This document shows, one piece after another, positions 1,704 to 2,714 of a DNA stretch of 15,984 nt. The notes under the pieces are model-generated. The model saw only the letters and a list, made by a program, of their open reading frames with translations. It did no database searches and was not told where the DNA came from. Numbering within the stretch: position 1 is the stretch's first letter; each line of letters opens with the position of its first letter. The position numbers and the translations under genes are program-made. Source of the stretch: Candidatus Odinarchaeota archaeon (lineage in GTDB: Archaea; Asgardarchaeota; Odinarchaeia; Odinarchaeales; Odinarchaeaceae); contig JAWBON010000028.1 in the NCBI GenBank assembly GCA_038826135.1, forward strand, positions 1 through 15,984, read 5' to 3'.

Positions 1704-1772
1704 AACCCTGCTCATTTCCTTTTTTATTACACTATAATTAATAAAGAGTTTAGTTTATTCACCGGAATATAA

Positions 1773-1784
1773 AAAAATTTATAT
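1773..1784 (+). promoter_or_regulatory. Putative BRE/TATA promoter of the tRNA-Gln gene
   Basis: AAAAATTTATAT ending about 35 nt upstream of the mature tRNA 5' end, consistent with a short 5' leader. Confidence 0.65.
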
Positions 1785-1856
1785 TTTGAAGAATTTATTC
1801 GGTATTCTAGGTTAGCGTAGCCCGGTGGTGTAGTGGCCAAGCATCAGGGACTCTGG

Positions 1857-1889
1857 TCAGCTCATAACTTTGATTACGAGCTGGTGGAA
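1857..1889 (+). other. tRNA intron 1 (33 nt, canonical position 37/38)
   Basis: Inner helix CAGCTC(1858-63)/GAGCTG(1878-83); bulges G1855-G1856-T1857 and A1888-A1889-A1890; relaxed central helix CUCU/GUGG (1 C-G, 2 U-G, 1 mismatch). Confidence 0.9.
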
Positions 1890-1899
1890 ATCCTTGGAC

Positions 1900-1926
1900 A
1901 GTGGTTAGTTAAAATACCACCCTGAA
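1900..1926 (+). other. tRNA intron 2 (27 nt, non-canonical position 48/49, variable region/T-stem junction)
   Basis: Three registers give the same mature tRNA, but the best BHB is at 1900-1926: inner helix GTGGT/ACCAC, central UUGG(1894-97)/CCUG(1921-24) with 3 of 4 pairs, bulges ACA and AAA, outer helix TCC(1891-93)/GGA(1928-30). Confidence 0.85.
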
Positions 1927-1937
1927 AGGAGTTCGAA

Positions 1938-1964
1938 GTATTAAGCTATATGCTTAAACGGAAA
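1938..1964 (+). other. tRNA intron 3 (27 nt, non-canonical position 59/60, T loop)
   Basis: Central helix UUCG(1932-35)/CGGA(1959-62) fully paired including one G-U; bulges AAG and AAT; inner hairpin TTAAGC-TATAT-GCTTAA; the outer helix is the T stem. Confidence 0.9.
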
Positions 1965-2030
1965 TCTCCTCCGGGCTACCATTTTATATTTCAGCATCAT
2001 GGTTTTCAAAATGGTTTAAGAGGTTATGAG

Positions 2031-2714
2031 ATGATTAAACTTGTTTTATTCGATCTTTATCTAACATTGATCAATATCAGCGGTGTTGATCAGGAGGAGC
2101 AGAATAAAGCAGCGTACAATGTTTTATGCCATGCTGGTTATAACCTAGAGTTTGAAAAATTCAAAGAAGTTTTCAAAAAAAATTACGATAAATGGAGACA
2201 GTACAGGCAAAACTCTCTTATCGAAGTTAACCCACGTGTATGGTGGCAAGAAACGTTGTTAAAATTAGGTGTGCCCTCTAAATTTAAACTCGTAGAGAAT
2301 ATTCTAGAAGAAAGGCATAAAATATTTTTGAAAGGGATTGAACTGTATGATGATGTAATAGATGTTTTAAATCGCTTAAAAGAAGCGGGTATACTGATAG
2401 GTATAATGAGTAATTGTTCGGATGCTAGGTATGCTAAAGAGGAGTTAGAATATTTAGGTATATCCTCCTATATCGATGTTTTCATATCTTCAGCGGATTA
2501 TGGGAGGAGAAAACCTGATATAAATCTCTTCTCGGATGTGTTATCCAGCCTCCCTTTTACAATGGAGCAAATTATAATGGTCGGAGACGATTATAAAAAT
2601 GATGTGGAGCCGTGGGGGAGACTAGGAGTTAAAGCCTATTTATTAGACAGAGATGGGAAAAACACCGGCAGCAACATCATACACACATTATATGAGTTAG
2701 AGAGTATTATATAA
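2031..2714 (+). CDS. HAD-superfamily hydrolase (subfamily IA-like); start corrected from 1950 to 2031
   Basis: Motif I FDLYLTL just after M2031, motif II IMSN, motif III RKPD, motif IV VGDDYKND. The ORF-track N-terminal extension overlaps the tRNA. AAGAGGT SD-like site upstream of 2031. Confidence 0.9.
   Translation: MIKLVLFDLYLTLINISGVDQEEQNKAAYNVLCHAGYNLEFEKFKEVFKKNYDKWRQYRQNSLIEVNPRVWWQETLLKLGVPSKFKLVENILEERHKIFLKGIELYDDVIDVLNRLKEAGILIGIMSNCSDARYAKEELEYLGISSYIDVFISSADYGRRKPDINLFSDVLSSLPFTMEQIIMVGDDYKNDVEPWGRLGVKAYLLDRDGKNTGSNIIHTLYELESII

Follow-up and report, generated by a model that had tools for sequence, protein, structure and literature searches.

Three-intron tRNA genes are known from Thermoproteales, for example from Thermofilum and Pyrobaculum (Sugahara 2007/2008; see the review PMC4033280). 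Among the Asgard archaea, 92-95% of the tRNA genes of Atabeyarchaeia and Freyarchaeia were found to be interrupted, more than half of them multiply (Valentin-Alvarado 2024; PMC11291895). A preprint covering 90 Asgard genomes described up to five intervening sequences per gene and reported that T-arm introns mostly form canonical bulge-helix-bulge (BHB) motifs, that many gains map to terminal branches and that there is no general donor route (Goswami 2026; bioRxiv 10.64898/2026.10.13.758758). Odinarchaeia are not named in the main text of that preprint, in which the string 'Odin' does not occur (10.64898/2026.10.13.758758). For Odinarchaeota LCB_4, the tRNA sets published on the basis of tRNAscan-SE 2.0 were reported to be incomplete, and Asgard EndA was described in 2018 as a heterotetramer-type enzyme with L1 loop (both PMC5829648).

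The locus described here lies in a stretch of 15,984 nucleotides, which we refer to as the window, from a metagenome-assembled Odinarchaeia genome of 1.26 Mb in 105 contigs (G000; 38% G+C, estimated 93% complete). Judged from its sequence, the plus-strand interval 1819-1981 is a real and almost certainly functional tRNA-Gln(CUG) gene, with three introns that include non-canonical positions, in an Asgard host. It resembles the published multi-intron Asgard genes (PMC11291895; 10.64898/2026.10.13.758758) in phylum, in having introns of about 20-30 nt and in their canonical, variable-region and T-arm positions; canonical T-arm BHBs, many terminal-branch gains and genes or introns missed by standard tools are further points of likeness. 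The published papers centre on Atabeyarchaeia and Jordiarchaeia, whereas the window gene comes from a small (about 1.3-1.4 Mb) Odinarchaeia genome, and the published genes were partly called, whereas ARAGORN and Rfam miss the window gene wholly. The Thermoproteales genes likewise have as many as three BHB introns, use non-canonical positions and depend on a heterotetrameric EndA of broad specificity (PMC4033280), but Thermoproteales belong to the Thermoproteota, and intron transposition was inferred there from similar introns, whereas no similar copy of intron 3 was found in four genomes of the window's genus. A eukaryotic parallel is the nuclear-type tRNA gene with three ectopic introns that are removed by a protein splicing endonuclease; the intron positions differ, and the comparison is an analogy that implies no intron homology. 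An earlier sequence-only reading of this DNA had presented a triple-intron tRNA in an Asgard genome as a rarity with a bearing on the origin of eukaryotic tRNA splicing. The triple-intron gene itself stands, but multi-intron Asgard genes had already been published, so that rarity in Asgard archaea cannot be claimed. Likewise, the picture of how eukaryotic tRNA splicing originated is unchanged, because both multi-intron Asgard tRNAs and a heterotetramer-type Asgard EndA were on record (PMC5829648). What is new here is the example in Odinarchaeia, what is most simply a species-specific gain of an intron at 59/60, and a clash between splice motifs within one precursor.

The gene consists of four exons of 38, 10, 11 and 17 nt, in sum 76 nt, separated by inserts of 33, 27 and 27 nt:

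1819-1856, plus strand: exon 1, tRNA positions 1-37 (5' strand of the acceptor stem, D arm, 5' strand of the anticodon stem, G37)
1857-1889, plus strand: intron 1, 33 nt, at the canonical site 37/38
1890-1899, plus strand: exon 2, tRNA positions 38-48, 10 nt, without position 47 (3' strand of the anticodon stem and variable loop GGAC)
1900-1926, plus strand: intron 2, 27 nt, at 48/49
1927-1937, plus strand: exon 3, tRNA positions 49-59 (5' strand of the T stem and T-loop TTCGAA)
1938-1964, plus strand: intron 3, 27 nt, in the T-loop at 59/60
1965-1981, plus strand: exon 4, tRNA positions 60-76 (3' strands of the T stem and the acceptor stem, discriminator A, CCA at 1979-1981)

When the four exons were joined, ARAGORN called a full-length tRNA-Gln(ctg) of 76 nt, and removal of the inserts restored a canonical cloverleaf with seven acceptor pairs starting with A1-U72, discriminator A and an encoded CCA. 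By inspection, the tertiary partners G15-C48, T54-A58 and G53-C61 are also present in the joined tRNA. The anticodon CTG occupies 1853-1855 within exon 1. The gene identity and the three intron sites proposed by the sequence-only reading were thereby reproduced with exact coordinates and lengths, as was the encoded CCA that it had noted. CCA is encoded in 27 of the 29 tRNA genes detected in this genome, so its presence in tRNA-Gln(CUG) is normal there. The expectation that simple pipelines would overlook the gene proved right: ARAGORN made no call on the unspliced locus with the intron option on or off, and no Rfam family matched it, either at the gathering score or at E<=10. That both ARAGORN and the Rfam tRNA model overlook this gene matters for genome annotation.

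The geometry of the splice motifs was checked at the three pairs of boundaries required by the cloverleaf. A BHB was taken to consist of two 3-nt bulges, each cut after its second base, on either side of a central helix of four positions, together with an outer and an inner helix. All three introns show the exact register, with the cuts placed in 3-nt bulges that flank a 4-position central helix:

1857-1889, plus strand: BHB of intron 1; outer helix, anticodon stem; central helix C-G, U.G, C x U, U.G; bulges GG|U and AA|A; inner helix 1858-1863 with 1878-1883 (6 bp)
1900-1926, plus strand: BHB of intron 2; outer helix, 1891-1893 with 1928-1930 (3 bp); central helix G-C, G-C, U x U, U.G; bulges AC|A and AA|A; inner helix 1901-1905 with 1916-1920 (5 bp)
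1938-1964, plus strand: BHB of intron 3; outer helix, T stem (5 bp); central helix TTCG with CGGA, four of four positions paired; bulges AA|G and AA|U; inner helix 1941-1946 with 1952-1957 (6 bp)

Each intron therefore has a BHB-type motif of its own, as had been claimed: that of intron 3 has a central helix with all 4 bp, and those of introns 1 and 2 are relaxed forms with three of four central pairs and one mismatch each. The central helix of intron 1 is weak, comprising one Watson-Crick pair, two G.U pairs and the mismatch, and the inner hairpin of intron 3 is offset by one nucleotide from the strict register. Among random genome positions with the same spacing, equally good BHB features were met at a frequency of about 1e-3 for intron 1, 9e-4 for intron 2 and 1e-4 for intron 3. 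In a blind search, all BHB candidates within the 163 nt were listed, up to four of them were removed in combination and ARAGORN was run on every product. Exactly the three introns described above were among the eight full-length hits and had the best BHB features; the other full-length solutions shown had weaker motifs. The same splice search gave decoy solutions at some other hidden tRNA genes and none for two of them, and its results do not represent a complete tRNA census of the genome. By sequence alone, the boundaries of intron 2 could be shifted by one A and those of intron 3 by one or two As with an unchanged product; they are fixed at 1900-1926 and 1938-1964 because the bulge geometry selects these positions. 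For intron 3, independent support comes from the contiguous T arm of three congeneric genomes, which leaves a clean gap of 27 nt in the alignment.

These three genomes represent other species of the genus, and each contains a syntenic orthologue (loci L002, L003 and L004) with introns 1 and 2 and an uninterrupted T arm, preceded by a small ORF with an Lrp/AsnC domain and followed by a HAD hydrolase gene. Their exons differ from those of the window gene in a single D-loop base in exon 1, exon 2 is invariant and the intron positions 37/38 and 48/49 are common to all; like the UUG paralogue at C60:6106-6223, they lack the 59/60 intron. The helices of introns 1 and 2 are conserved in all four members of the genus while their loops vary, and the inner helix of intron 2 contains one compensatory change from U-A to C-G. 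This is a single compensatory pair in four sequences, a sample size at which shuffle controls were uninformative. When named genome records were scanned for exact matches to the pattern, the two-intron architecture turned up in Candidatus Odinarchaeia archaeon RPA3 and Candidatus Odinarchaeota archaeon J65_bin.29, which seem to represent genomes of the genus, in agreement with the Asgard host that had been suspected. One genome of the genus is a single contig (98% complete); its only tRNA-Gln(CUG)-like hit is the two-intron orthologue, so that splicing of introns 1 and 2 must be close to obligatory in that organism. In the sister family, which belongs to the same order, two tRNA-Gln(CUG) genes carry a D-loop insert and an anticodon-loop intron, and the introns at 48/49 and 59/60 are absent from both. 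The D-loop insert measures 10 nt, which would suit either a D-arm intron of very small size or a D loop that has become enlarged; it is shared by the sister-family Gln genes of both isoacceptors (L010, L011, L012, L041 and L044), none of which has a 48/49 intron. The two Gln isoacceptors agree in their intron positions inside each lineage, which hints at concerted evolution.

Since intron 3 is absent from the three congeners and from the two sister-family genes, it most simply represents a gain on the branch of the window's species, and intron 2 most simply a gain in the genus. Intron 3 might instead be ancestral to the genus and have been lost in the other three species. Introns at 59/60 are indeed known in tRNA-Gln genes of other Asgard families and on wetland metagenome contigs, and the window's species was not placed inside the genus when gains and losses were counted. 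We nevertheless regard ancestry as unlikely, because the two sister-family genes lack intron 3 as well, a gain takes one step where ancestry followed by loss takes at least two, and the distant 59/60 introns have no sequence in common with intron 3 beyond the motif that the BHB enforces. A different objection starts from the fact that intron 3 is known from one draft assembly, while the scans may have left out records of the same or a near-identical genome: in a metagenome-assembled genome, the insert could be an artefact of assembly or binning. A random mis-join, however, would not yield a hairpin insert with a canonical BHB and ends that restore the T-loop, and the flanks of intron 3 are collinear with the relatives on both sides, which makes an artefact very unlikely. 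Read as a species-level gain, intron 3 would offer a clean, datable event within one genus.

At least six other T-loop introns at 59/60 occur in the window's genome, in tRNA genes that are otherwise intact. All seven follow one design, in which the T stem serves as outer helix and T54-R57 pair with YGRA-type bases (CGAG in one case) positioned 2 nt upstream of the 3' cut. In total, the architecture of intron 3 matches that of 19 other 59/60 introns (CGAG in two), six in the same genome and 13 at other loci, the latter distributed over two Asgard genomes and eleven metagenome contigs. Two other Asgard families show the same design in their tRNA-Gln genes, as do 11 wetland or peat metagenome contigs, and 59/60 introns follow one stereotyped design across Asgard lineages. 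The tRNA-Gln genes on the eleven wetland and peat contigs (L045-L055) have the T arm and acceptor stem of the window gene and, by eye, three or more inserts per gene in the D arm, the anticodon region and the T-loop. The three-intron allele of the window itself was absent from these 11 contigs in the metagenome scan; their genes are all different and more heavily interrupted.

A donor for intron 3 was sought in its own genome with blastn-short, which returned chance matches of at most 13 nt and one 16-nt hit with a mismatch. Its 21-nt core pattern, allowing up to three mismatches, had hits in protein-coding sequence only in the four genomes of the genus, two of them in an orthologous gene that translates to LLDYMLKQL and one elsewhere. 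Copying from another tRNA gene, in the manner of Thermoproteales, is therefore unsupported, with no similar copy in the four genus genomes. The T-loop TTCGAA is its own reverse complement, which leads to the idea that a BHB could be completed within this loop by a short insert whose last bases resemble CGAA or CGGA and are followed by two more. Any short hairpin insert with YGRA and two further bases at its end would acquire a central helix of 4 bp and two bulges of 3 nt, the T stem acting as outer helix. Whether intron 3 arose de novo very recently in this way, without a donor copy in the four genomes and with the palindromic TTCGAA as landing pad, is a question on which our judgement is evenly balanced. 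If it is true, the orthologues free of this intron and the allele in the window would form a natural before-and-after pair for an origin of endonuclease-type introns, and the pair would sit in the closest archaeal relatives of eukaryotes.

The surroundings of the tRNA gene contain the following elements:

1768-1810, plus strand: conserved block, putative promoter, with an A-run at 1771-1777 (BRE-like) and the TATA-like TTTATATT at 1778-1785
1982-1991, plus strand: T-rich tract TTTTATATTT directly 3' of the CCA
2031-2714, plus strand: HAD-family hydrolase gene (Pfam HAD_2/Hydrolase), start ATG at 2031

Among the four congeneric genomes, the TATA/BRE-like block of about 43 nt is the only nearly invariant part of the intergenic region. 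The TATA-like TTTATATT precedes the 5' end of the tRNA by about 37 nt, and by analogy to archaeal promoter architecture we infer that 1768-1810 is a putative promoter. The TTTTATATTT tract is likely an archaeal terminator. The N-termini of the orthologous HAD hydrolases, M[IV]KAVLFDL, start 46-49 nt past the CCA, corresponding to ATG 2031 in the window. The start at 1950, inside intron 3, that overlaps the tRNA locus is hence an artefact, as had been surmised. As an ORF, 1950-2714 is 27 codons too long for the HAD hydrolase and reaches back through exon 4 into intron 3 of the tRNA gene; a GAGGT precedes ATG 2031. Upstream of the tRNA gene, 1473-1703 on the plus strand encodes a stand-alone Lrp/AsnC ligand-binding domain of 76 aa (PF01037, E=4e-17); this ORF falls below the 100-aa threshold of the ORF listing and precedes the tRNA gene in all four congeners.

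The genome encodes the enzymes that processing of such a transcript would call for. Two EndA-family genes are present. The catalytic-type protein aligns without gaps to the catalytic subunit of A. pernix (3P1Z_B, E=3e-29), including a specific loop and the aligned Lys, to which we ascribe the broad specificity of the crenarchaeal enzymes. The second EndA-family protein, located to C45:5827-6087, has 185 aa and, by eye, no His at the catalytic position, and the EndA of this organism looks like a heterotetramer of catalytic and structural subunits as far as the sequences tell, which fits the enzyme type described for Asgard archaea (PMC5829648). The gene for the catalytic EndA is broken over the contig ends C48:1-420 (minus strand) and C72:2-274 (plus strand); since these ends overlap by about 42 identical residues, this reflects an assembly gap and not a split gene. 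The tRNA ligase RtcB is encoded at C16:2586-5357 (plus strand; loci L036 and L037) in an open frame of 995 aa, in which an intein containing a LAGLIDADG homing-endonuclease domain interrupts the match to RtcB. Judged by homology, an endonuclease suited to relaxed and non-canonical BHBs and an RNA ligase are thus both encoded in the genome. A precursor of about 170 nt would probably be transcribed from the conserved TATA/BRE block, EndA would cut at both 3-nt bulges of each BHB motif and RtcB would then join the four exons.

The three motifs cannot form side by side. The outer and central helices of intron 2 use 1891-1897 and 1928-1930, bases that in the tRNA form the anticodon stem (3' strand) and the T stem (5' strand); its BHB therefore excludes the BHBs of introns 1 and 3 as well as the cloverleaf. 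Consequently, the precursor must refold or be spliced stepwise. The clash between the intron 2 BHB and the cloverleaf also occurs in the orthologues of the congeners and in the UUG paralogue. In the ensemble computed with ViennaRNA at 37 C, conformers with strict BHBs are minor species, and the cost of forming the strict BHB amounts to about 2 kcal/mol for intron 3, 6-7 kcal/mol for intron 1 and 10-11 kcal/mol for intron 2. We assume that binding of EndA would pay this folding cost. Taking out any one of the introns in the computation barely altered the cost for the others, so that no order of splicing can be deduced from thermodynamics. With mutually exclusive splice motifs in one precursor, this RNA would be a suitable substrate for testing refolding or ordered splicing.

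Charging of the spliced tRNA can be expected to follow the archaeal transamidation route, as had been proposed from the A1-U72 pair, which GatDE recognises (PMC2943598). Both subunits of this enzyme are encoded by adjacent genes on contig C2 with scores above the cut-offs (GatE 602 bits, GatD 557 bits), whereas the best hit to the glnS model in this genome reached 218 bits against a cut-off of 426 for GlnRS. With A1-U72 and GatDE present and no GlnRS at cut-off, tRNA-Gln(CUG) is an expected GatDE substrate: a non-discriminating GluRS would load Glu, which GatDE would then amidate.

A search of the 93%-complete assembly for another tRNA-Gln(CUG), or for an uninterrupted CUG anticodon arm in a tRNA context, found neither an intron-less nor any other copy, although one could reside in the missing part. 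The gene in the window completes the decoding set of this Odinarchaeia genome, which would otherwise have no tRNA with a CUG anticodon. The isoacceptor tRNA-Gln(UUG) at C60:6106-6223 has introns at 37/38 and 48/49 and none at 59/60; its acceptor stem and T arm are identical to those of tRNA-Gln(CUG), and its D arm differs in one D-loop base. The existence of this second Gln isoacceptor, together with the restriction of the 27-nt T-loop insert to the window's species, permits the reading that the 59/60 insert is spliced poorly or not at all, that the gene is a recent pseudogene and that CAG is read by tRNA-Gln(UUG) through wobble. Several observations make this improbable. An insert with a full 4-bp central helix, 3-nt bulges that restore the T-loop and the T stem as outer helix is met at only about 1e-4 of random positions, and intron 3 has the same design as the six other T-loop introns in otherwise intact tRNA genes of the genome. 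Compared with the orthologues, exons, CCA and promoter show no decay. Furthermore, CAG is slightly commoner than CAA (12.7 versus 11.1 per 1000 codons). We hence consider it highly probable that the explanation as a whole is correct, namely that this is the only tRNA-Gln(CUG) gene found in the genome and that its processing, charging and intron history are as proposed here.

A scan of the genome for acceptor stem, T arm and CCA uncovered further tRNA genes that Rfam does not see. One of them, at C5:12805-12986 on the minus strand of this assembly, is 182 nt long, has a CAT anticodon and by eye contains four inserts, in the anticodon stem, the anticodon loop, the variable region and the T-loop at 59/60; if all four are introns, it exceeds the three of the tRNA-Gln gene. 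Five more tRNA genes of the same genome went unreported by Rfam and ARAGORN, at C5:24247-24377 (plus strand), C8:17638-17753 (minus), C15:5973-6078 (plus), C16:9622-9741 (minus) and C29:12159-12271 (minus). Each of these five has a 59/60 intron of 16-26 nt with the stereotyped BHB, and most contain a second intron.
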